Below, piece by piece: positions 1 through 13,108 of a DNA stretch of 64,000 bases (the first letter of the stretch is position 1; each line of letters opens with the position of its first letter). Source of the stretch: Escherichia coli (GTDB lineage Bacteria; Pseudomonadota; Gammaproteobacteria; Enterobacterales; Enterobacteriaceae). The stretch is taken from assembly GCF_003334315.1 (NCBI RefSeq), contig NZ_QOWR01000005.1; one strand, 5' to 3'. The notes beneath the pieces are model-generated. The model worked only from the letters and a program-made list of their open reading frames with translations. It made no database searches and was not told the origin of the DNA. The translations under genes and the position numbers were made by a program.

Positions 1-116
1 GGTTGAGAAGCGGTGTAAGTGAACTGCAGTTGCCATGTTTTACGGCAGTGAGAGCAGAGATAGCGCTGATGTCCGGCAGTACTTTTACCGTTACGCACCA
101 CGCCTTCAGTAGCTGA
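1..116 (+). CDS. Possible 3' end of a CDS that begins upstream of the window (sseB would be the K-12 neighbour)
   Basis: Frame 3 is open from the window edge to TGA at 114-116 (37 codons). Identity cannot be verified from this fragment; an open frame this short could be chance. Confidence 0.25.
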
Positions 117-132
117 GCAGGAGGGACAACTG

Positions 133-189
133 ATGGAGATGGAAGCCACGGGAGCACCTCAAAAACACCATCATACACTAAATCAGTAA
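133..189 (+). CDS. Hypothetical 18-aa small ORF ([18 protein letters not shown])
   Basis: ATG at 133 preceded by AGGAGG at 119-124 (8-nt spacing); TAA at 187-189. Lies in the sseA-downstream intergenic region where K-12 carries the sRNA locus ryfA (from memory). Confidence 0.3.
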
Positions 190-408
190 GTTGGCACCAT
201 TACCTGAATTCGGACTAATAAGCCAGGTTATTTTATTACCGAACACGGCGGAAAGGGCCGGTGTCGATAATACGCTAAATAAACAATAATTACTCTCTTT
301 TGCTTGACAAAAAGAGAGTTACTGGTGAGTATTGTTTTGCTGTGAAGCACCTGCGTTGCTCATGTAACACAAGTCAACCTGCTGGAAAGGCCGCGAACCA
401 GACTAGCA

Positions 409-440
409 ATAAAAAACCGCCAAATTCGGCGGTTTTTTAT
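409..440. terminator. Bidirectional rho-independent terminator (sseA 3' end and convergent upstream transcript)
   Basis: AAAAAACCGCC-aaattc-GGCGGTTTTTT: GC stem flanked by an A-run and a T-run, so it reads as a terminator on both strands. Confidence 0.7.
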
Positions 441-454
441 TGCCTGTAAAATAC

Positions 455-1300
455 TTATTTCACTGGCTCAACCGGTAAATCTGCCCGCGCGCCCCATTCA
501 CTCCATGCGCCGTCGTACAGTTTCACGTTTGGCACATCCAGCGTCGCGAGTGCTAACAAAACCACGGCTGCCGTTACACCAGAGCCGCAGCTGACGATAA
601 TTGGTTTGTCGTAGCTGACGCCGCGACCAAAAAATATCGCATCCAGTTCATCGGTCGTTTTTAGTTCGCCTTCGCGCACCAGTTCCGTCCACGGAACATT
701 CAGTGCTCCGGGAATATGTCCGCGACGTAAACCTGGGCGAGGTTCATCAACTTCTGCGTTAAAACGTGCAGCCGGGCGGGCATCAATAATTTGCGCCGTA
801 TTTTCATGGCTTGCCAATAATACATCGGTTACTTTCACCACGGCTTCAGGATTAAACGCGGCGTTAAACTCTCCTTCCGGCAGCTCTACTGCACCTTCTT
901 CTAACAGCAGATCATCGCGCTGCCAGCCTGCAAGTCCACCCCCCAGAATCGACACTTTCTCTACACCAAAGGTGCGCAGCATCCACCATGCTCGTGGGGC
1001 TGAGAAAAGATTACCTTCGTCATAGACAATCAGGTGCTTATCCTGGTTAACGCCTAATTCACGCATCGCCACGGCGAACGTTTCCGGGCGCGGCAGCATG
1101 TGCGGAAGCGGGGAAGTGTGATCAGAAAGCGCTTCGATATCAAAAAACACTGCGCCGGGAATATGTCCATTCAGATACTCCTGAGCAACGTTACGATCCT
1201 CCTGTCCAGGCGACGCCATGCGGGCATCGATAATCTGAATTTCCGGGTCATCAATATGTTCGGCGAGCCAGTCGGCTCCTACAAACCATGTCGTGGACAT
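455..1300 (-). CDS. sseA: 3-mercaptopyruvate sulfurtransferase (tandem rhodanese)
   Basis: Translation MSTTWFVGADWLAEHIDDPEIQIIDARM... recognised as SseA; 281 aa from the internal ATG at 1298-1300 (track ORF extends upstream to 1459). Confidence 0.95.
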   Translation of the reverse strand: MSTTWFVGADWLAEHIDDPEIQIIDARMASPGQEDRNVAQEYLNGHIPGAVFFDIEALSDHTSPLPHMLPRPETFAVAMRELGVNQDKHLIVYDEGNLFSAPRAWWMLRTFGVEKVSILGGGLAGWQRDDLLLEEGAVELPEGEFNAAFNPEAVVKVTDVLLASHENTAQIIDARPAARFNAEVDEPRPGLRRGHIPGALNVPWTELVREGELKTTDELDAIFFGRGVSYDKPIIVSCGSGVTAAVVLLALATLDVPNVKLYDGAWSEWGARADLPVEPVK

Positions 1301-1506
1301 AGGCATCTCCATTTTTGCCGGGGTTAGGCTAAATTGTCGGATGTTTAGTGAAAAGCGACAAGCAAAAGAGGCTGATTTGGCTGTCTGAGCCACAATTCTC
1401 ACTAAAATTCGGATTGTATGGGCGTGATACTGAATTACATAACGTAAATTCTCACGCATAATAATTATTCGACGTTGCTAACGGGCCATTGTGGCAGGGA
1501 TGAAAA

Positions 1507-4500
1507 ATGAAAAAGTTACGCGTAGCCGCCTGCATGCTAATGCTGGCGCTGGCAGGGTGCGACAACAACGATAACGCGCCAACAGCGGTGAAAAAAGATG
1601 CGCCTTCTGAAGTTACTAAAGCGGCCTCTTCAGAAAACGCGAGTTCAGCAAAACTCTCCGCGCCAGAGCGACAAAAACTGGCACAACAGAGTGCCGGTAA
1701 GGCGCTGACATTGCTGGATCTCTCTGAAGTCCAACTTGATGGTGCAGCCACGCTGGTGCTGACGTTCTCCATCCCTCTCGACCCGGATCAGGATTTCTCA
1801 CGCGTTATTCATGTCGTCGATAAAAAAAGCGGCAAAGTGGATGGTGCCTGGGAGCTGTCAGATAATCTTAAAGAGCTGCGTTTACGCCACCTCGAACCGA
1901 AACGTGATTTGATCGTTACTATTGGCAAGGAGGTCAAAGCACTCAACAACGCAACCTTCAGTAAAGATTACGAAAAAACTATAACTACCCGCGACATCCA
2001 ACCCAGCGTCGGTTTTGCCAGCCGTGGTTCGCTGCTGCCTGGTAAAGTCGTTGAAGGGCTGCCGGTAATGGCGCTCAACGTTAATAATGTCGATGTTAAC
2101 TTCTTTCGCGTTAAGCCAGAATCTCTGCCAGCATTCATTAGCCAATGGGAATACCGCAATTCGCTGGCGAACTGGCAGTCAGACAAACTGCTGCAGATGG
2201 CGGATCTGGTCTACACCGGACGGTTTGATCTCAATCCTGCGCGTAACACCCGTGAAAAATTATTGCTGCCGCTGGGCGATATCAAACCGCTTCAGCAGGC
2301 GGGCGTGTATCTGGCTGTGATGAATCAGGCTGGACGTTACGATTACAGTAATCCCGCGACGCTGTTTACGTTAAGTGATATCGGCGTTTCAGCTCACCGT
2401 TATCACAATCGTCTGGATATCTTTACCCAAAGTCTGGAAAACGGCGCGGCCCAGCAAGGAATTGAAGTCTCTTTATTAAATGAGAAAGGGCAGACTCTGA
2501 CTCAGGCAACCAGTGACGCTCAGGGGCATGTGCAGCTGGAAAATGATAAAAACGCGGCATTACTGTTGGCGCGTAAAGACGGTCAGACAACGCTACTCGA
2601 TTTAAAACTTCCGGCGCTGGACTTAGCAGAATTTAACATTGCTGGCGCGCCAGGCTATAGCAAACAGTTTTTCATGTTTGGCCCGCGCGATCTTTATCGC
2701 CCGGGTGAAACGGTAATCCTCAATGGTTTGCTGCGTGATGCAGACGGTAAAGCGTTGCCCGATCAACCCATCAAGTTAGACGTGATTAAACCCGACGGGC
2801 AGGTTCTCAGGAGCGTCGTTAGTCAGCCGGAGAATGGCCTCTACCACTTAACCTGGCCACTCGATAGCAATGCGGCAACCGGTATGTGGCATATTCGCGC
2901 TAACACGGGCGATAACCAGTATCGGATGTGGGATTTCCACGTCGAAGATTTTATGCCAGAGCGTATGGCGCTGAATCTGACCGGTGAGAAAACCCCGCTT
3001 ACGCCGAATGATGAAGTGAAATTCTCCGTGGTGGGATACTACCTGTACGGTGCGCCTGCTAATGGTAATACTTTGCAAGGGCAACTTTTCCTGCGCCCAC
3101 TGCGTGAGGCTGTGTCAGCCTTACCTGGTTTTGAATTCGGCGATATAGCTGCCGAAAACCTTTCCCGCACGCTGGATGAAGTTCAGTTGACGCTGGATGA
3201 TAAAGGGCGCGGCGAAGTTTCTACAGAAAGCCAGTGGAAGGAAACGCATTCCCCATTACAGGTTATTTTCCAGGGTAGTTTGCTGGAATCGGGCGGTCGC
3301 CCGGTGACGCGCCGCGCTGAGCAGGCTATCTGGCCTGCCGATGCATTGCCGGGGATCCGTCCGCAGTTCGCCTCGAAATCGGTTTACGATTATCGTACTG
3401 ACAGCACGGTGAAACAGCCCATTGTTGATGAAGGCAGTAACGCCGCTTTTGACATCGTTTATAGCGATGCGCAAGGCGTGAAAAAAGCCGTGTCGGGCTT
3501 GCAGGTGCGCCTGATTCGCGAACGCCGCGATTACTACTGGAACTGGTCAGAAGATGAAGGCTGGCAGTCACAGTTTGATCAAAAAGATCTGATCGAAAAT
3601 GAACAAACTCTGGATCTGAAAGCGGACGAAACCGGCAAGGTCAGTTTTCCGGTAGAGTGGGGTGCTTATCGTCTGGAAGTCAAAGCGCCGAATGAAGCGG
3701 TCAGTAGTGTTCGTTTCTGGGCTGGCTATAGCTGGCAGGACAACAGCGACGGGAGCGGTGCCGTGCGACCCGACCGTGTCACGCTGAAACTGGATAAAGC
3801 CAGTTATCGCCCTGGCGATACCATTAAGTTGCATATTGCCGCGCCAACGGCGGGTAAAGGTTATGCGATGGTCGAGTCCAGTGAAGGGCCGCTGTGGTGG
3901 CAAGAGATTGATGTTCCGGCTCAAGGGCTGGATCTGACGATTCCGGTCGATAAAACCTGGAATCGTCATGATCTTTATTTGAGTACGCTGGTGGTGCGTC
4001 CTGGCGATAAATCTCGCTCCGCGACGCCAAAACGCGCGGTTGGTGTGTTGCATCTGCCGCTTGGTGATGAAAACCGTCGCCTCGATCTGGCGCTGGAAAC
4101 ACCAGCAAAAATGCGTCCCAATCAACCATTAACCGTGAAAATTAAAGCCAGCACTAAAAATGGCGAGAAGCCTAAACAGGTGAATGTGCTGGTGTCTGCC
4201 GTTGATAGTGGTGTGCTGAATATTACTGACTACGTCACGCCAGATCCGTGGCAGGCGTTCTTTGGTCAGAAACGCTATGGCGCAGACATTTACGATATTT
4301 ACGGTCAGGTTATTGAAGGTCAGGGGCGTCTGGCAGCTCTGCGTTTCGGTGGCGATGGTGATGAGCTGAAACGTGGTGGTAAACCGCCGGTCAATCACGT
4401 CAATATTGTCGCGCAGCAGGCGCTGCCGGTAACGCTCAACGAACAGGGCGAAGGCTCGGTTACACTGCCGATTGGCGATTTTAACGGTGAATTGCGCGTC

Positions 4501-6468
4501 ATGGCGCAAGCCTGGACGGCAGATGACTTCGGTAGCAACGAAAGTAAAGTGATAGTTGCCGCACCGGTGATTGCTGAACTGAACATGCCGCGCTTTATGG
4601 CGAGTGGCGATACCTCGCGTCTGACGCTGGATATCACTAATCTTACCGATAAACCGCAAAAACTGAACGTTGCCCTGACCGCCAGTGGTTTGCTTGAACT
4701 GGTCAGCGATTCACCCGCAGCCGTTGAATTAGCGCCAGGTGTGCGTACTACGCTGTTTATCCCGGTGCGAGCATTGCCGGGTTATGGCGATGGAGAAATT
4801 CAGGTCACCATTAGCGGGTTAGCGTTACCGGGTGAAACCGTTGCCGATCAGCATAAGCAGTGGAAAATCGGCGTCCGTCCGGCGTTCCCGGCACAAACGG
4901 TTAATTACGGTACGGCGTTACAGCCTGGTGAGACATGGGCGATTCCGGCGGATGGATTGCAAAACTTCTCGCCTGTTACGCTGGAAGGGCAATTGTTGTT
5001 GAGCGGCAAACCACCGCTGAACATCGCACGTTATATCAAAGAGTTAAAAGCGTATCCGTACGGCTGTCTTGAGCAAACCGCCAGCGGCCTGTTTCCGTCA
5101 CTTTATACCAACGCAGCCCAACTGCAGGCGTTGGGCATCAAAGGCGACAGTGATGAGAAACGCCGTGCATCGGTCGATATCGGCATTTCCCGTTTGCTGC
5201 AAATGCAACGTGATAACGGCGGCTTTGCGCTGTGGGATAAAAACGGTGACGAAGAGTACTGGCTGACGGCTTACGTGATGGATTTCCTGGTCCGCGCAGG
5301 CGAACAGGGTTACAGCGTGCCGACAGACGCCATTAACCGGGGTAATGAGCGTCTGCTGCGCTATTTACAAGATCCGGGCATGATGTCGATCCCGTACGCG
5401 GATAATCTCAAAGCCAGTAAATTCGCCGTTCAGTCTTACGCTGCGCTGGTGCTGGCCCGTCAGCAAAAAGCACCACTGGGTGCGCTGCGTGAAATCTGGG
5501 AGCATCGTGCAGATGCCGCTTCTGGTTTACCGCTGCTGCAACTTGGCGTTGCGCTGAAAACCATGGGTGATGCAACGCGTGGTGAAGAAGCGATTGTGCT
5601 GGCGCTGAAAACGCCGCGTAATAGTGATGAGCGGATATGGCTGGGTGATTACGGTAGTCCACTGCGCGACAACGCGTTAATGCTCTCCTTGCTGGAAGAA
5701 AATAAACTGCTACCCGATGAGCAGTACACTTTGCTGAACACACTTTCGCAGCAGGCGTTTGGTGAACGCTGGCTATCGACGCAGGAAAGTAACGCGTTGT
5801 TCCTGGCTGCCCGTACGATTCAGGATTTACCGGGTAAATGGCAGGCGCAAACCTCTTTCTCAGCTGAGCCGCTGACAGGCGAGAAAACGCTAAACAGCAA
5901 TCTGAATAGCGATCAACTTGCCACCTTGCAGGTGAGAAACAGTGGCGATCAGCCGTTATGGTTGCGTATGGATGCCAGCGGTTATCCGCAATCCGCACCT
6001 TTACCGGCGAACAATGTGCTGCAAATCGAGCGTCATATTCTTGGTACTGATGGTAAGAGCAAATCGCTGGACTCGTTACGTAGCGGCGATCTGGTGCTGG
6101 TCTGGTTGCAGGTAAAAGCCAGTAACAGCGTGCCGGATGCGTTAGTCGTGGATCTGCTGCCTGCGGGTCTGGAACTGGAAAGCCAGAATCTGGCGAACGG
6201 TAGCGCCAGCCTGGAGCAAAGTGGTGGCGAAGTGCAGAACTTACTGAACCAGATGCAGCAGGCGAGCATTAAGCACATTGAGTTCCGTGACGATCGCTTT
6301 GTGGCGGCGGTTGCCGTTGATGAATACCAACCGGTAACGCTGGTGTATCTGGCGCGGGCGGTGACGCCGGGAACGTATCAGGTACCGCAACCGATGGTGG
6401 AATCAATGTATGTTCCCCAATGGCGGGCGACCGGCGCGGCTGAAGATCTGCTGATTGTCAGACCGTAA
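1507..6468 (+). CDS. yfhM: Alpha-2-macroglobulin family lipoprotein
   Basis: 1653 aa; lipoprotein signal MKKLRVAACMLMLALAGC; thioester motif CLEQ encoded at 5065-5076. Confidence 0.95.
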   Translation: MKKLRVAACMLMLALAGCDNNDNAPTAVKKDAPSEVTKAASSENASSAKLSAPERQKLAQQSAGKALTLLDLSEVQLDGAATLVLTFSIPLDPDQDFSRVIHVVDKKSGKVDGAWELSDNLKELRLRHLEPKRDLIVTIGKEVKALNNATFSKDYEKTITTRDIQPSVGFASRGSLLPGKVVEGLPVMALNVNNVDVNFFRVKPESLPAFISQWEYRNSLANWQSDKLLQMADLVYTGRFDLNPARNTREKLLLPLGDIKPLQQAGVYLAVMNQAGRYDYSNPATLFTLSDIGVSAHRYHNRLDIFTQSLENGAAQQGIEVSLLNEKGQTLTQATSDAQGHVQLENDKNAALLLARKDGQTTLLDLKLPALDLAEFNIAGAPGYSKQFFMFGPRDLYRPGETVILNGLLRDADGKALPDQPIKLDVIKPDGQVLRSVVSQPENGLYHLTWPLDSNAATGMWHIRANTGDNQYRMWDFHVEDFMPERMALNLTGEKTPLTPNDEVKFSVVGYYLYGAPANGNTLQGQLFLRPLREAVSALPGFEFGDIAAENLSRTLDEVQLTLDDKGRGEVSTESQWKETHSPLQVIFQGSLLESGGRPVTRRAEQAIWPADALPGIRPQFASKSVYDYRTDSTVKQPIVDEGSNAAFDIVYSDAQGVKKAVSGLQVRLIRERRDYYWNWSEDEGWQSQFDQKDLIENEQTLDLKADETGKVSFPVEWGAYRLEVKAPNEAVSSVRFWAGYSWQDNSDGSGAVRPDRVTLKLDKASYRPGDTIKLHIAAPTAGKGYAMVESSEGPLWWQEIDVPAQGLDLTIPVDKTWNRHDLYLSTLVVRPGDKSRSATPKRAVGVLHLPLGDENRRLDLALETPAKMRPNQPLTVKIKASTKNGEKPKQVNVLVSAVDSGVLNITDYVTPDPWQAFFGQKRYGADIYDIYGQVIEGQGRLAALRFGGDGDELKRGGKPPVNHVNIVAQQALPVTLNEQGEGSVTLPIGDFNGELRVMAQAWTADDFGSNESKVIVAAPVIAELNMPRFMASGDTSRLTLDITNLTDKPQKLNVALTASGLLELVSDSPAAVELAPGVRTTLFIPVRALPGYGDGEIQVTISGLALPGETVADQHKQWKIGVRPAFPAQTVNYGTALQPGETWAIPADGLQNFSPVTLEGQLLLSGKPPLNIARYIKELKAYPYGCLEQTASGLFPSLYTNAAQLQALGIKGDSDEKRRASVDIGISRLLQMQRDNGGFALWDKNGDEEYWLTAYVMDFLVRAGEQGYSVPTDAINRGNERLLRYLQDPGMMSIPYADNLKASKFAVQSYAALVLARQQKAPLGALREIWEHRADAASGLPLLQLGVALKTMGDATRGEEAIVLALKTPRNSDERIWLGDYGSPLRDNALMLSLLEENKLLPDEQYTLLNTLSQQAFGERWLSTQESNALFLAARTIQDLPGKWQAQTSFSAEPLTGEKTLNSNLNSDQLATLQVRNSGDQPLWLRMDASGYPQSAPLPANNVLQIERHILGTDGKSKSLDSLRSGDLVLVWLQVKASNSVPDALVVDLLPAGLELESQNLANGSASLEQSGGEVQNLLNQMQQASIKHIEFRDDRFVAAVAVDEYQPVTLVYLARAVTPGTYQVPQPMVESMYVPQWRATGAAEDLLIVRP

Positions 6469-8781
6469 ATGCCTCGCTTGTTAACCAAACGCGGCTGCTG
6501 GATAACGTTGGCAGCCGCGCCCTTTCTCCTTTTTCTTGCAGCGTGGGGAGCAGATAAACTCTGGCCTCTACCGCTGCATGAAGTCAATCCCGCACGAGTG
6601 GTCGTGGCGCAGGATGGTACGCCGCTCTGGCGCTTCGCCGATGCTGACGGCATCTGGCGTTATCCGGTAACAATCGAAGATGTTTCTCCACGTTACCTTG
6701 AAGCGCTGATCAATTATGAAGATCGCTGGTTCTGGAAGCATCCGGGGGTGAATCCATTCTCGGTGGCGCGCGCAGCATGGCAAGATCTCACTTCGGGACG
6801 GGTTATTTCCGGTGGCAGCACGCTCACTATGCAGGTTGCTCGTCTGCTTGATCCTCACCCCAAAACATTTGGCGGCAAAATTCGCCAGCTCTGGCGCGCG
6901 TTGCAACTGGAATGGCATCTGTCTAAGCGTGAAATTCTGACCTTGTATCTTAACCGCGCTCCGTTTGGCGGTACGTTGCAGGGGATCGGTGCGGCAAGTT
7001 GGGCTTATCTCGGAAAATCGCCTGCGAATTTAAGCTATTCCGAGGCGGCAATGCTGGCGGTTTTGCCGCAAGCGCCCAGCCGTCTTCGCCCGGATCGTTG
7101 GCCGGAGCGTGCCGAAGCCGCGCGTAATAAAGTGCTCGAACGGATGGCCGTGCAAGGTGTGTGGTCCCGTGAGCAGGTAAAAGAGTCAAGGGAAGAACCC
7201 ATCTGGCTGGCCCCCCGACAAATGCCGCAACTGGCACCGCTGTTTTCGCGCATGATGCTCGGTAAAAGCAAAAGCGACAAAATCACTACTACGTTGGATG
7301 CCGGTCTTCAACGACGTCTGGAAGAACTGGCGCAAAACTGGAAAGGGCGGTTGCCACCGCGCAGCTCACTGGCGATGATCGTGGTTGATCATACCGATAT
7401 GCGTGTTCGCGGCTGGGTGGGATCGGTTGATCTCAACGATGATTCACGCTTTGGTCATGTTGATATGGTCAATTCGATCCGATCGCCAGGATCAGTGCTC
7501 AAACCGTTTGTTTATGGTCTGGCGCTGGATGAAGGCTTGATCCACCCGGCATCACTGCTGCAAGACGTCCCCCGGCGCACCGGTGATTATCGACCAGGTA
7601 ACTTTGATAGCGGTTTTCATGGCCCGATCAGCATGAGCGAGGCGCTGGTGCGCTCGCTGAACTTACCTGCTGTGCAGGTGCTGGAAGCCTATGGACCGAA
7701 ACGGTTTGCGGCAAAGTTACGCAATGTTGGATTGCCGTTATATTTGCCCAACGGTGCTGCGCCGAATCTTTCACTCATTCTCGGCGGCGCTGGTGCAAAA
7801 CTGGAAGATATGGCGGCAGCGTATACCGCGTTTGCTCGCCACGGCAAGGCAGGCAAATTGCGCTTACAGCCTGACGATCCGCTGCTTGAACGGCCTTTAA
7901 TGTCGTCGGGGGCGGCGTGGATCATTCGCCGGATTATGGCTGATGAAGCGCAACCCTTGCCGGATAGTGCCTTGCCGCGCGTCGCCCCACTGGCATGGAA
8001 AACGGGCACCAGCTATGGCTATCGTGACGCCTGGGCGATTGGGGTTAACGCTCGCTATGTCATTGGGATCTGGACTGGCAGACCGGACGGCACGCCCGTT
8101 GTTGGTCAGTTTGGCTTTGCCAGTGCCGTACCATTGTTGAATCAGGTCAATAATATCTTACTGTCGCGCAGTGCGAATCTGCCGGAAGACCCGCGCCCGA
8201 ACTCAGTCACTCGTGGCGTTATCTGCTGGCCGGGCGGACAGTCTTTGCCGGAAGGTGACGGTAACTGTCGCCGCCGCCTGGCAACCTGGCTGCTGGACGG
8301 GAGTCAGCCGCCAACTCTATTACTGCCGGAGCAGGAAGGCATTAATGGCATTCGTTTCCCCATCTGGCTGGATGAAAATGGCAAACGTGTTGCCGCTGAT
8401 TGCCCGCAAGCGCGACAAGAAATGATAAATGTCTGGCCGCTACCGCTGGAACCCTGGCTGCCCGCATCAGAACGTCGCGCTGTGCGCTTACCACCGGCCT
8501 CGACAAGTTGCCCGCCATACGGTCACGATGCCCAGCTCCCGCTGCAGCTGACAGGCGTTCGCGATGGCGCGATTATTAAACGTTTACCGGGCGCAGCGGA
8601 AGCGACTTTGCCGTTGCAATCAAGTGGAGGGGCAGGTGAACGCTGGTGGTTTCTGAATGGCGAACCGTTAACTGAACGCGGGCGCAACGTGACCCTGCAT
8701 TTGACGGATAAAGGTGATTATCAATTGCTGGTGATGGATGACGTGGGGCAAATCGCGACAGTGAAATTTGTCATGCAATAG
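6469..8781 (+). CDS. pbpC: Penicillin-binding protein 1C (glycosyltransferase/transpeptidase)
   Basis: 770 aa; the ATG abuts the yfhM TAA (TAAATG), as in the K-12 yfhM-pbpC operon. Confidence 0.95.
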   Translation: MPRLLTKRGCWITLAAAPFLLFLAAWGADKLWPLPLHEVNPARVVVAQDGTPLWRFADADGIWRYPVTIEDVSPRYLEALINYEDRWFWKHPGVNPFSVARAAWQDLTSGRVISGGSTLTMQVARLLDPHPKTFGGKIRQLWRALQLEWHLSKREILTLYLNRAPFGGTLQGIGAASWAYLGKSPANLSYSEAAMLAVLPQAPSRLRPDRWPERAEAARNKVLERMAVQGVWSREQVKESREEPIWLAPRQMPQLAPLFSRMMLGKSKSDKITTTLDAGLQRRLEELAQNWKGRLPPRSSLAMIVVDHTDMRVRGWVGSVDLNDDSRFGHVDMVNSIRSPGSVLKPFVYGLALDEGLIHPASLLQDVPRRTGDYRPGNFDSGFHGPISMSEALVRSLNLPAVQVLEAYGPKRFAAKLRNVGLPLYLPNGAAPNLSLILGGAGAKLEDMAAAYTAFARHGKAGKLRLQPDDPLLERPLMSSGAAWIIRRIMADEAQPLPDSALPRVAPLAWKTGTSYGYRDAWAIGVNARYVIGIWTGRPDGTPVVGQFGFASAVPLLNQVNNILLSRSANLPEDPRPNSVTRGVICWPGGQSLPEGDGNCRRRLATWLLDGSQPPTLLLPEQEGINGIRFPIWLDENGKRVAADCPQARQEMINVWPLPLEPWLPASERRAVRLPPASTSCPPYGHDAQLPLQLTGVRDGAIIKRLPGAAEATLPLQSSGGAGERWWFLNGEPLTERGRNVTLHLTDKGDYQLLVMDDVGQIATVKFVMQ

Positions 8782-8929
8782 TCTGTTTTGTCCCTGATTG
8801 TTGCTAAAACTCATTTTATTTTAAAAAAATGTTACCTTCATCAATAGTCAACGGCCCTGTTGCTCATTATAATCCGCGCCATCTCGTACGCTGGTACAGA
8901 CAACAACAGAACAATTTACAGAGGTAAAA

Positions 8930-9361
8930 ATGGCTATTGAACGTACTTTTTCCATCATCAAACCGAACGCGGTAGCAAAAAACGTCATTGGTAATATCTT
9001 TGCGCGCTTTGAAGCTGCAGGGTTCAAAATTGTTGGCACCAAAATGCTGCACCTGACCGTTGAACAGGCACGTGGCTTTTATGCTGAACACGATGGAAAA
9101 CCGTTCTTTGATGGTCTGGTTGAATTCATGACCTCTGGCCCGATCGTGGTTTCCGTGCTGGAAGGTGAAAACGCCGTTCAGCGTCACCGCGATCTGCTGG
9201 GCGCGACCAATCCGGCAAACGCACTGGCTGGTACTCTGCGCGCTGATTACGCTGACAGCCTGACCGAAAACGGTACCCACGGTTCTGATTCCGTCGAATC
9301 TGCCGCTCGCGAAATCGCTTATTTCTTTGGCGAAGGCGAAGTGTGCCCGCGCACCCGTTAA
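8930..9361 (+). CDS. ndk: Nucleoside diphosphate kinase
   Basis: 143 aa, [32 protein letters not shown]...; SD upstream. Confidence 0.97.
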
Positions 9362-9423
9362 TAATTTCGTAAATGCCGCGTGCAAACGTGGCATCCGTGC
9401 GCCAGAATTTGTACAATGCAGCG

Positions 9424-9464
9424 CCCCCGGACGAGCAGCCGCTCACCGGGGCGTTTCTTTTTTC
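9424..9464 (+). terminator. Putative intrinsic terminator/attenuator between ndk and rlmN
   Basis: CCCCGG...CCGGGG stem followed by cgTTTCTTTTTT. Confidence 0.5.
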
Positions 9465-9510
9465 AACCCTCCAGGGGCCATAACGTGTAATAACGAGGCC
9501 GGAATAGCAT

Positions 9511-10665
9511 ATGTCTGAACAATTAGTCACACCTGAAAACGTCACCACGAAAGATGGAAAAATCAACCTGCTGGATCTCAACCGTCAGCAGATGCGGGAG
9601 TTTTTTAAAGATTTAGGTGAAAAACCCTTCCGCGCCGATCAGGTGATGAAGTGGATGTATCACTATTGCTGCGACAACTTTGATGAGATGACCGACATCA
9701 ACAAAGTGTTGCGCGGCAAACTGAAAGAGGTGGCGGAAATCCGCGCACCGGAAGTGGTTGAAGAACAGCGTTCATCCGACGGCACCATTAAATGGGCGAT
9801 CGCCGTTGGCGATCAGCGCGTCGAAACGGTGTATATCCCGGAAGACGACCGTGCCACGCTCTGCGTCTCTTCGCAGGTGGGGTGTGCGCTGGAGTGTAAA
9901 TTCTGTTCCACCGCCCAGCAGGGCTTTAACCGCAACCTGCGGGTATCGGAAATTATTGGCCAGGTGTGGCGTGCGGCGAAAATCGTCGGCGCAGCAAAAG
10001 TCACCGGTCAGCGCCCAATCACTAACGTAGTGATGATGGGCATGGGCGAGCCGCTGCTCAACCTGAACAACGTCGTTCCGGCGATGGAAATCATGCTTGA
10101 TGATTTCGGTTTTGGCCTGTCTAAACGTCGCGTCACGCTTTCTACTTCCGGTGTAGTTCCGGCGCTGGATAAACTGGGCGATATGATCGACGTTGCACTG
10201 GCAATTTCCCTGCACGCGCCGAACGACGAAATTCGTGACGAAATTGTGCCGATCAACAAAAAGTACAATATCGAAACGTTCCTTGCTGCGGTGCGCCGTT
10301 ATCTGGAGAAATCCAACGCCAATCAAGGCCGAGTCACTATTGAATACGTGATGCTTGACCACGTTAACGACGGCACTGAACACGCTCACCAACTGGCGGA
10401 ACTGCTGAAAGATACGCCGTGTAAGATCAACCTGATCCCGTGGAACCCGTTCCCGGGTGCGCCGTATGGACGCAGCTCGAACAGCCGTATCGACCGTTTC
10501 TCAAAAGTGCTGATGAGCTACGGTTTCACCACTATTGTGCGTAAAACGCGTGGTGATGATATCGATGCTGCCTGTGGTCAGTTGGCGGGCGATGTTATCG
10601 ACCGTACGAAACGTACCCTGCGTAAACGGATGCAGGGTGAAGCCATCGACATTAAAGCGGTCTGA
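9511..10665 (+). CDS. rlmN: 23S rRNA m2A2503 / tRNA m2A37 methyltransferase (radical SAM)
   Basis: 384 aa; radical-SAM Cys motif CALECKFC; [23 protein letters not shown]... Confidence 0.95.
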
Positions 10666-10668
10666 TAG

Positions 10669-10713
10669 CCATTACGCCACGGTTACTTTATGTACCGTGG
10701 CGTAATGTTTTAT
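10669..10713 (+). terminator. Intrinsic terminator after rlmN
   Basis: 13-bp stem CATTACGCCACGG / CCGTGGCGTAATG followed by TTTTAT. Confidence 0.6.
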
Positions 10714-10949
10714 GAATGAAGTATTAAGTTGCAATTGTCTGGTCAATATTAACGGTGCGTTTTTGCTGACTTTAAGGCAGTATGTAACGATGCAACAGTA
10801 AGTTAGCCTTAGTGAATGTGGGCTTTGTCACGAGCACACAGACGGTCTTATACTGTATGATAACGGTTAACTTAACGGATGTTTCGCGGTGTGGGTGAGC
10901 ATGATGGTTCACCGGCATCTCAATTCTCATTTAAACGTACCTGCAGCGA

Positions 10950-11963
10950 ATGAATACTGAAGCCACGCACGACCAAAATGAAGCACTTACTACCGGCGCT
11001 CGCCTGCGTAATGCTCGCGAACAACTAGGACTTAGTCAGCAGGCCGTTGCCGAGCGACTTTGCCTGAAGGTTTCCACGGTACGCGACATTGAAGAAGATA
11101 AGGCACCCGCCGATCTTGCTTCAACATTCCTGCGCGGATATATCCGCTCTTATGCGCGTCTGGTACATATTCCAGAAGAAGAACTGCTGCCAGGGCTGGA
11201 AAAGCAGGCTCCACTACGGGCTGCAAAAGTTGCGCCTATGCAGAGTTTTTCCCTCGGTAAACGCCGCAAAAAACGTGACGGCTGGCTGATGACCTTCACC
11301 TGGCTGGTGTTGTTTGTGGTTATCGGCCTGAGCGGTGCCTGGTGGTGGCAAGACCACAAAGCTCAGCAGGAAGAGATCACCACTATGGCCGATCAATCTT
11401 CGGCGGAACTGAGCAGTAATAGCGAGCAGGGGCAGAGTGTTCCGTTAAATACGTCGACAACTACAGACCCGGCTACAACGTCCACGCCGCCAGCGTCTGT
11501 GGATACTACCGCAACCAACACGCAAACACCTGCCGTAACTGCGCCAGCACCAGCTGTTGATCCGCAACAGAATGCGGTTGTTTCGCCTTCGCAGGCAAAT
11601 GTTGATACCGCCGCGACCCCGGCACCAACGGCAACAACAACGCCAGATGGCGCTGCGCCGTTGCCAACCGATCAGGCAGGCGTGACTACGCCGGCGGCTG
11701 ATCCGAATGCGCTGGTGATGAACTTTACTGCCGATTGCTGGCTGGAGGTTACTGATGCTACCGGTAAAAAATTGTTTAGCGGTATGCAGCGTAAAGACGG
11801 TAATTTGAACTTAACCGGCCAGGCACCATACAAACTGAAAATTGGTGCGCCAGCCGCAGTACAGATCCAGTATCAAGGGAAACCTGTCGATCTGAGTCGT
11901 TTTATCAGAACTAACCAGGTTGCGCGTCTGACCCTCAATGCCGAACAATCACCGGCGCAGTAA
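10950..11963 (+). CDS. rodZ: Cytoskeleton protein RodZ (HTH, one TM segment, T/P/A-rich linker)
   Basis: 337 aa; N-terminal HTH, TM segment [22 protein letters not shown], low-complexity periplasmic linker. Confidence 0.93.
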
Positions 11964-11989
11964 CAGACGGGTAACGCGGGAGATTTTTC

Positions 11990-13108
11990 ATGCATAACCA
12001 GGCTCCAATTCAACGTAGAAAATCAACACGTATTTACGTTGGGAATGTGCCGATTGGCGATGGTGCTCCCATCGCCGTACAGTCCATGACCAATACGCGT
12101 ACGACAGACGTCGAAGCAACGGTCAATCAAATCAAGGCGCTGGAACGCGTTGGCGCTGATATCGTCCGTGTCTCCGTACCGACGATGGACGCGGCAGAAG
12201 CGTTCAAACTCATCAAACAGCAGGTTAACGTGCCGCTGGTGGCTGACATCCACTTCGACTATCGCATTGCACTGAAAGTAGCGGAATACGGCGTCGATTG
12301 TCTGCGTATTAACCCTGGCAATATCGGTAATGAAGAGCGTATTCGCATGGTAGTTGACTGTGCGCGCGATAAAAACATTCCGATCCGCATTGGCGTTAAC
12401 GCCGGATCGCTGGAAAAAGATCTGCAAGAAAAGTATGGCGAACCGACGCCGCAGGCGTTGCTGGAATCCGCCATGCGCCATGTTGATCATCTCGATCGCC
12501 TGAACTTCGATCAGTTCAAAGTCAGCGTGAAAGCGTCTGACGTCTTCCTCGCTGTTGAGTCTTATCGTTTGCTGGCAAAACAAATCGATCAGCCGCTGCA
12601 TCTGGGGATCACCGAAGCGGGTGGCGCGCGCAGCGGGGCAGTAAAATCCGCCATTGGTTTAGGTCTGCTGCTGTCTGAAGGCATCGGCGACACGCTGCGC
12701 GTATCACTGGCGGCCGATCCGGTCGAAGAGATCAAAGTCGGTTTCGATATTTTGAAATCGCTGCGTATCCGTTCGCGAGGTATCAACTTCATCGCCTGTC
12801 CGACCTGTTCGCGTCAGGAGTTTGATGTTATCGGTACGGTTAACGCGCTGGAGCAACGCCTGGAAGATATCATCACTCCGATGGACGTTTCGATTATCGG
12901 CTGCGTGGTGAATGGCCCAGGTGAGGCGCTGGTTTCTACACTCGGCGTCACCGGCGGCAACAAGAAAAGCGGCCTCTATGAAGATGGCGTGCGCAAAGAC
13001 CGTCTGGACAACAACGATATGATCGACCAGCTGGAAGCACGCATTCGTGCGAAAGCCAGTCAGCTGGACGAAGCGCGTCGAATTGACGTTCAGCAGGTCG
13101 AAAAATAA
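11990..13108 (+). CDS. ispG: 4-hydroxy-3-methylbut-2-enyl diphosphate synthase
   Basis: 372 aa, [36 protein letters not shown]... Confidence 0.96.

Follow-up and report, generated by a model that had tools for sequence, protein, structure and literature searches.

The interval beside sseA in an Escherichia coli strain comprises an IS1 end, a relic leader and the antitoxin sRNA gene timR

What occupies the interval next to sseA at the start of a 64,000-nucleotide stretch of Escherichia coli DNA (contig NZ_QOWR01000005.1, hereafter the window)? An initial annotation had treated it as a single gene-free region downstream of sseA, holding a short open reading frame (ORF) and a promoter-to-terminator unit of about 100 nt, and had connected it with the ryfA locus. 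The motifs on which this description was built are all found in the sequence, namely an 18-codon ORF at 133-189 with AGGAGG at 119-124 and TGA at 114-116, the promoter motifs TTGACA (304-309) and GAGTAT (327-332) 17 bp apart, and a bidirectional terminator at 409-441, a palindrome flanked by an A-run and a T-run, which is confirmed by folding. The region is however not a single one. Positions 1-204 are IS1 DNA with insA on the minus strand from position 149, and the IS1 end and a truncated IS128 relic between the ORF and the unit had gone unrecognised. We are highly confident that the interval consists of an IS1 end with a chance antisense ORF, a relic leader and the gene of the TimR antitoxin sRNA (Table 1).

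Table 1. Features of the sseA-proximal interval and of the corresponding K-12 locus. Positions are those of the window unless marked L001, the numbering of the K-12 locus, in which window position x corresponds to x+1297.
Feature	Position	Strand	Basis and remarks
IS1 left end	1-204	minus	Megablast, K-12 junction, reverse-complement reading; element continues past the window start
IS1 terminal inverted repeat	ends at 204	minus	GGTAATGGTGCC...
insA, N-terminal 49 codons	3-149	minus	Translation; GTG start at 149; continues beyond the window start
18-codon ORF	133-189	plus	IS1 positions 15-71, strand opposite insA; judged not to be a gene
Truncated ryfA-like leader relic	205-279	minus	Matches the 5' third of Rfam IS128 (RF00125); its GGCCCUUUCCGCC hairpin has a homologue at the ryfA 5' end
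Sigma70-like promoter TTGTCA-16-TATTGT	283-310	minus	Promoter scan; faces the relic leader
timR promoter	304-332	plus	-35 TTGACA 304-309, 17-bp spacer, -10 GAGTAT 327-332
timR sRNA, about 102 nt	340-441	plus	SL1344 TimR alignment, Nissle identity, primers, covariance model, fold
TimR unpaired 5' seed TGCTGTGAAGCACCTGCGTT	338/340-357	plus	Complementary to nt 64-83 of the K-12-type timP (ryfA) 5'UTR
timR hairpin 1	355-368	plus	Fold and covariation
timR hairpin 2	380-408	plus	Fold and covariation
Bidirectional intrinsic terminator	409-441	both	Common to timR (plus) and convergent sseA (minus; stop codon 455-457)
K-12 ryfA (RF00126)	L001 1236->933	minus	314.9 bits; timP coding sequence inside
K-12 IS128 (RF00125), intact	L001 1576->1368	minus	261 bits; between sseA and ryfA
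K-12 copy A, beside ryfA	L001 ~1220-1414		timR-like unit 1315-1413
K-12 copy B, beside sseA	L001 1542-1738 = window 245-441		timR unit = window 339-441

The IS1 end and the relic leader

In reverse complement, positions 1-204 contain the IS1 inverted repeat and, after it, insA with its N-terminal zinc-finger codons, and a generic promoter scan places a promoter-like site directed towards insA within the inverted repeat (197->170, minus strand). In megablast searches of 5426 complete E. coli genomes, 4965 carry IS1 transposase loci that match window 1-203; the copies are chromosomal as well as plasmid-borne, and some are 100% identical. The features annotated under these matches are IS1 family transposases. 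The junction between IS1 and K-12 sequence maps to 203-205. Native chromosome starts at 204/205 and is 100% identical to K-12 MG1655, and several E. coli genomes that do not carry the insertion match positions 204-12000 at 100% identity, so that a Shigella origin, considered in view of the IS1 isoform, need not be assumed. Thus IS1 is inserted into the sseA-sseB intergenic region. While the terminal inverted repeat, the insA start, the zinc-finger codons and the complete identity to other E. coli copies are those of IS1, the copy represents a minority isoform, about 7% divergent from IS1A/B across the first 203 nt, and differs from the IS1A-type copy of strain PK8277 at 14 of 204 nt. No further IS1 copy was found when the window was searched for material for comparing the ORF.

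In K-12 the order of genes is sseA, intergenic region, ryfA/timP and sseB, and the intergenic region contains two paralogous segments of about 195 bp that are about 85% identical, copy A beside ryfA and copy B beside sseA. Each copy has a ryfA-type 5' hairpin on one strand; on the other, a TTGACA promoter precedes a body of about 100 nt that ends in a terminator. The hairpin strand of the sseA-adjacent copy accounts for the sequence between IS1 and the unit. Using cmscan, the minus strand (279->205) matches the 5' part of IS128 with 72.5 bits against a gathering threshold of 80, after which 112 model positions are skipped; the match is partial because IS1 interrupts IS128. The relic is thus akin to the 5' third of IS128 and homologous to the promoter-proximal 5' end of ryfA, of whose leader only the first few nucleotides survive here, but it differs from IS128 in being a fragment alone with a score below gathering. 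A literature search, which was obscured by the stem-cell marker SSEA, found no paper that takes IS128 further.

In single-copy strains the sigma70-like promoter that faces the relic forms the ryfA-directed half of the divergent promoter region, and a sigma70 holoenzyme SELEX peak of the K-12 sseA-ryfA spacer was attributed to the same TTGTCA/TATTGT hexamers (PMC3946193). In this strain the promoter-like site (310->283) would drive just a short relic transcript into IS1. Neither ryfA nor timP is present in the window: the ryfA model (RF00126) gives no match in positions 1-5000 at E<=1, compared to 314.9 bits at the K-12 locus, and in strains without IS1 the gene lies about 270 bp or more past the IS1 junction and hence outside the window. 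The interval had nevertheless rightly been assigned to the ryfA locus, relatives of which code for a small protein; the unit within it is timR and not ryfA.

The timR unit and its pairing with the timP leader

Compared with published loci, the unit at 304-441 on the plus strand is timR (RyfB, STnc2070), the gene for the antitoxin sRNA in the type I toxin-antitoxin locus timPR (ryfA), and as such already known. TimR of Salmonella SL1344 (97 nt), reconstructed from published T7-template oligonucleotides, aligns over its full length, with its +1 at window position 340 and its 3' end at about 442 (80/105 identical, 76%), and the SL1344 promoter, read off a deletion primer, is TTGACA-17-GAGTAT as in the window. 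The deletion arms and qRT-PCR primers published for E. coli timR map to 309-358, 405-454, 354-373 and 414-430 with 0-3 mismatches, and in K-12 to copy B, not copy A. This is further supported by E. coli Nissle 1917, whose sole such unit lies between sseA and timP and is identical to the window unit at 193 of 201 positions (96%), compared to 184 of 220 for K-12 copy A. The window unit itself is 100% identical to K-12, and IS1, about 100 bp upstream of the -35 element, leaves the gene intact. Its counterpart in MG1655 (U00096.3) would lie at roughly 2,653,454 to 2,653,353 on the minus strand. The predicted RNA is 102-103 nt long, and a timR band of about 100 nt is seen in Northern blots of strain CFT073 (PMC13188913).

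None of five RefSeq E. coli records inspected annotates timR. An Rfam scan at E<=1 brought no family to its gathering threshold: AgrB (29.6 bits) and ohsC (28.8 bits), both resting largely on the terminator hairpin, as well as RNAI, rimP and Leu-leader all stay below. Being unannotated and without an Rfam match, timR is therefore open to rediscovery as 'new' from sequence alone.

To follow the unit in other genomes, 80 Enterobacteriaceae loci were fetched with SseA as a neutral anchor and searched with nhmmer. Homologues are located between sseA and ryfA in Escherichia, Salmonella, Citrobacter, Pseudocitrobacter, Superficieibacter and Kluyvera, with E-values of 2e-14 and 2e-12 for the units of Salmonella diarizonae and arizonae, respectively. 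In single-copy strains and other genera the unit lies on the strand opposite sseA and is followed by ryfA after 39-42 nt. Conservation among 16-17 aligned units from six genera is 0.93 for the -35 and 0.92 for the -10 hexamer, compared to 0.59 for the spacer. The generic promoter scan does not call the plus-strand promoter, its -10 hexamer being weak (three of six consensus positions), and the generic terminator scan does not call the terminator, probably since the A and T runs lengthen the stem. We take the promoter as supported because the hexamers are conserved and the 5' end has been mapped in Salmonella.

The consensus fold comprises an unpaired 5' seed, two short hairpins and the terminator. 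Eight pairs are maintained despite changes on both sides, and 98.2% of the alignment cells are paired, compared to 33-59% when the partners are slid; the covariation score was reached by none of 500 shuffles. The terminator stem covaries as well (CCGCC/GGCGG versus CCGCT/GAGCGG). Hexamer conservation, a single-sequence fold z-score of -3.96 and covariation above both controls together bear out the sigma70-type promoter-to-terminator unit of about 100 nt that had been proposed. A covariance model yields one full-length match in the 64-kb window (339-441, 98.8 bits), which speaks for specificity only and not for independent detection, the window sequence having been part of the training alignment. 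A second match at 63038-63133 on the minus strand (18.8 bits) is an ordinary intrinsic terminator after a gene and not timR. In Salmonella enterica subsp. arizonae (L022 4934-5242) a timR-like unit is found without a promoter, overlapped on the opposite strand by a ryfA match that begins at model nt 51; this looks like a deletion that fused the seed to its complementary target and removed both promoters.

We then characterized the pairing of the seed with its target, which was taken from K-12, identical in the flanking DNA, as timP of this strain lies outside the window. Pairing was scored by the longest uninterrupted helix and by short-window duplexes, long-range duplexfold energies being skewed by unrealistic interior loops. 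Positions 338-357 pair without interruption over 20 nt with nt 64-83 of the K-12 timP leader (17 Watson-Crick and 3 G-U pairs); the timP ATG is at nt 147 of K-12 ryfA. In 10 of 11 loci across genera pairing occurs in this register, although the sequences differ. Cognate helices measure 16-20 bp while most non-cognate pairs reach 9-11 bp, demonstrating that seed and target coevolve, so that the limited identity between the window and Salmonella seeds (14/20) is expected. A third Escherichia seed type, ACUGUGGGGUGCC, occurs in the E. coli GTDB representative (L006 4860-4962), with a 12-nt helix to its own ryfA and an 18-nt helix to that of K-12; this may reflect a cognate helix interrupted by a mismatch, or an allele mismatch.

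In Salmonella, TimR (formerly STnc2070) is divergent from timP (the former ryfA), which encodes a membrane toxin; translation of timP is blocked when the 5' end of TimR pairs with the timP 5'UTR, at a site over 60 nt ahead of the ribosome-binding site (PMC7667032). Once bound, TimR breaks up a pseudoknot and the active mRNA conformation on which 30S loading depends (PMC13000454). In S. dysenteriae, RNA-seq revealed a divergent transcript of about 100 nt for each ryfA copy, RyfB1 and RyfB2 (PMC5333039). The window unit has the same position beside sseA with a divergent ryfA-side promoter as Salmonella TimR, S. dysenteriae RyfB1 and RyfB2 and timR of UPEC CFT073 and APEC CH138. With the TimR units of Salmonella, Shigella, UPEC and APEC it shares the TTGACA-17-GAGTAT promoter, the length of about 100 nt, the fold of two hairpins plus terminator and a 5' seed directed to the same position of the timP leader, at 76% identity to SL1344 and 96% to B2 E. 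coli. In contrast to these loci, the unit is not immediately adjacent to timP in the K-12-like lineage, where the relic leader and a second timR-like copy lie between; in this strain IS1 is added to them. IstR-1, OhsC, OrzO and AgrB resemble TimR in being short, trans-acting and ended by an intrinsic terminator, with a non-overlapping toxin neighbour whose mRNA leader they pair with, but they have no sequence homology to TimR, which is set apart by acting far upstream of the ribosome-binding site through pseudoknot disruption (PMC13000454).

By analogy with Salmonella, the sigma70 promoter would start timR transcription at about position 340, and the RNA of about 100 nt would end at the terminator common with convergent sseA. 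The 20 unpaired nt at its 5' end would bind nt 64-83 of the timP leader in trans, over 60 nt ahead of the ribosome-binding site; this would keep the leader from adopting the pseudoknot and active conformation required by 30S subunits, leaving TimP untranslated. In an APEC study, deletion of timR had little phenotype and the TimP peptide was not detected; it is hence the Salmonella data that support a toxin-antitoxin function in E. coli. Given the identity of the unit to K-12 we infer that timR is expressed in this strain; its timP target would still be present beyond IS1. As TimR acts in trans, separation from timP should not itself abolish control.

Related insertions bear on the retention of timP. 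Four complete genomes have IS1 at exactly this junction nucleotide, as a different isoform (14 differences in 204 nt). A simple IS1 insertion would leave the 9-bp target duplication TGAATTCGG at the far end. In PK8277 (L002 1937-2704) the far IS1 end instead abuts K-12 L001 ~1255, about 19 nt upstream of the ryfA +1, without a target duplication, indicating an adjacent deletion of copy A and most of IS128. Since PK8277 lost DNA beside IS1, the present strain could likewise have lost timP or its promoter, and timR would then be an orphan regulator, an sRNA with other targets or in decay after the IS1 event removed or silenced timP. The APEC study, which suggests effects of TimR when RyfA is absent, is compatible with this. 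However, timP is retained beyond IS1 in both PK8277 and WEM25, and the window unit, being 100% identical to K-12, has not decayed, so that we consider an orphan timR unlikely and retain the reading of an expressed antitoxin with its target beyond IS1. A second mobile element has entered the intergenic region in E. coli AST20, where a tnpA of the IS200/IS605 family is inserted between the timR region and sseA (L005 2142-2600).

The two timR-like copies of K-12-type strains

In K-12-type strains about 360 nt, made up of the relic and the second copy, separate the sseA-adjacent timR unit from timP, and the seed regions of the two copies differ (GCUGUGAAGCACC in copy B, GCUGAGACGCGCU in copy A). 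The copy A seed, GCUGAGACGCGCUUGCAUU, is of the E. whittamii/Kluyvera type. With the K-12 timP leader it forms a helix of at most 11 nt, compared to 20 nt for copy B, while with the ryfA leaders of E. whittamii and Kluyvera the helix is 17 nt long. Short-window duplexes with the timP leader give -34.3 kcal/mol for copy A versus -39.4 kcal/mol for copy B, a narrower gap than that of the helix lengths, and copy A may still bind the leader weakly. Thus the cognate TimR of K-12-type strains appears to be the distal copy.

The position of copy A right beside timP, which is the canonical divergent one, and the weak -10 hexamer of the sseA-adjacent unit would fit a different assignment, in which copy A is the working TimR of the K-12-like lineage and the plus-strand unit of the window is merely the sseA terminator plus a fortuitous promoter-like sequence. 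This is very unlikely considering the difference in helix length. Moreover, it is the sseA-adjacent unit and not copy A that is the orthologue of the single expressed timR of B2-phylogroup strains; its promoter hexamers are kept across genera, and its body covaries so as to preserve structure, which a bare terminator would not.

As to the history of the locus, IS128 looks like a composite relic, consisting of the 5' end of a lost second ryfA copy, AT-rich filler and the reverse strand of the copy A terminator, without a timP-like ORF. We tentatively suggest, as a possibility with less than even chances, that the K-12-type timPR locus is the remnant of a two-module array, in which the distal, sseA-adjacent TimR matches the surviving timP and IS128 is the relic leader of the lost toxin, and that IS1 insertions recurring at one junction, in this strain and, with an adjacent deletion, in PK8277, are dismantling this array and parting antitoxin from toxin.

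The open reading frame within IS1

The 18-codon ORF had been brought into connection with ryfA and its small protein. It lies within IS1, where it overlaps the insA start in antisense, and is unrelated to ryfA. Its Shine-Dalgarno-like AGGAGG, about 8 nt ahead of the ATG, corresponds on the other strand to CCC-TCC, which encodes Pro-Ser in the InsA Cys-Pro-Ser-Cys (CPSC) motif, and is present because these codons force that sequence. The initial annotation had proposed to compare the reading frame and the codon substitutions among relatives, with loss of the frame counting against the ORF. Neither frame nor start is kept in relatives. Compared with the IS1A-type copy of PK8277, ten insA codons differ, of which eight are synonymous and two conservative (I/V, E/D), while ATG133 reads ATA and ATG139 reads ACA, so that both possible starts of the ORF are gone. 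It is the divergence of the window copy from IS1A/B that happens to create them. As the changes are silent or conservative in the insA frame and abolish the ORF starts, selection acts on insA and not on the ORF. Judged by these substitutions, the ORF is not a real gene; it is a chance open frame combined with constraint from insA on the opposite strand.

A genuine translated small protein, antisense in the left end of IS1, is thus hardly conceivable in spite of the ATG, the near-perfect and suitably spaced AGGAGG and the stop codon, since the Shine-Dalgarno-like motif is set by the CPSC codons, IS1 substitutions track the insA frame rather than that of the ORF, the generic scan finds no promoter-like site on the plus strand ahead of the ORF (positions 1-132), and both ATGs are missing from the IS1A/B isoform, which matches best in 7891 of 9414 records; the window isoform reaches at least 99% identity in only 763.

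A strong Shine-Dalgarno motif before a short ORF can therefore mislead, as it is possibly just the complement of constrained codons of a mobile element. For timR the point is mostly one of annotation, since a conserved sRNA gene that is expressed in CFT073 is absent from the annotation. That the cognate copy is the distal one matters for timR deletions in K-12, where losing the timP-adjacent copy would probably leave TimP repressed.
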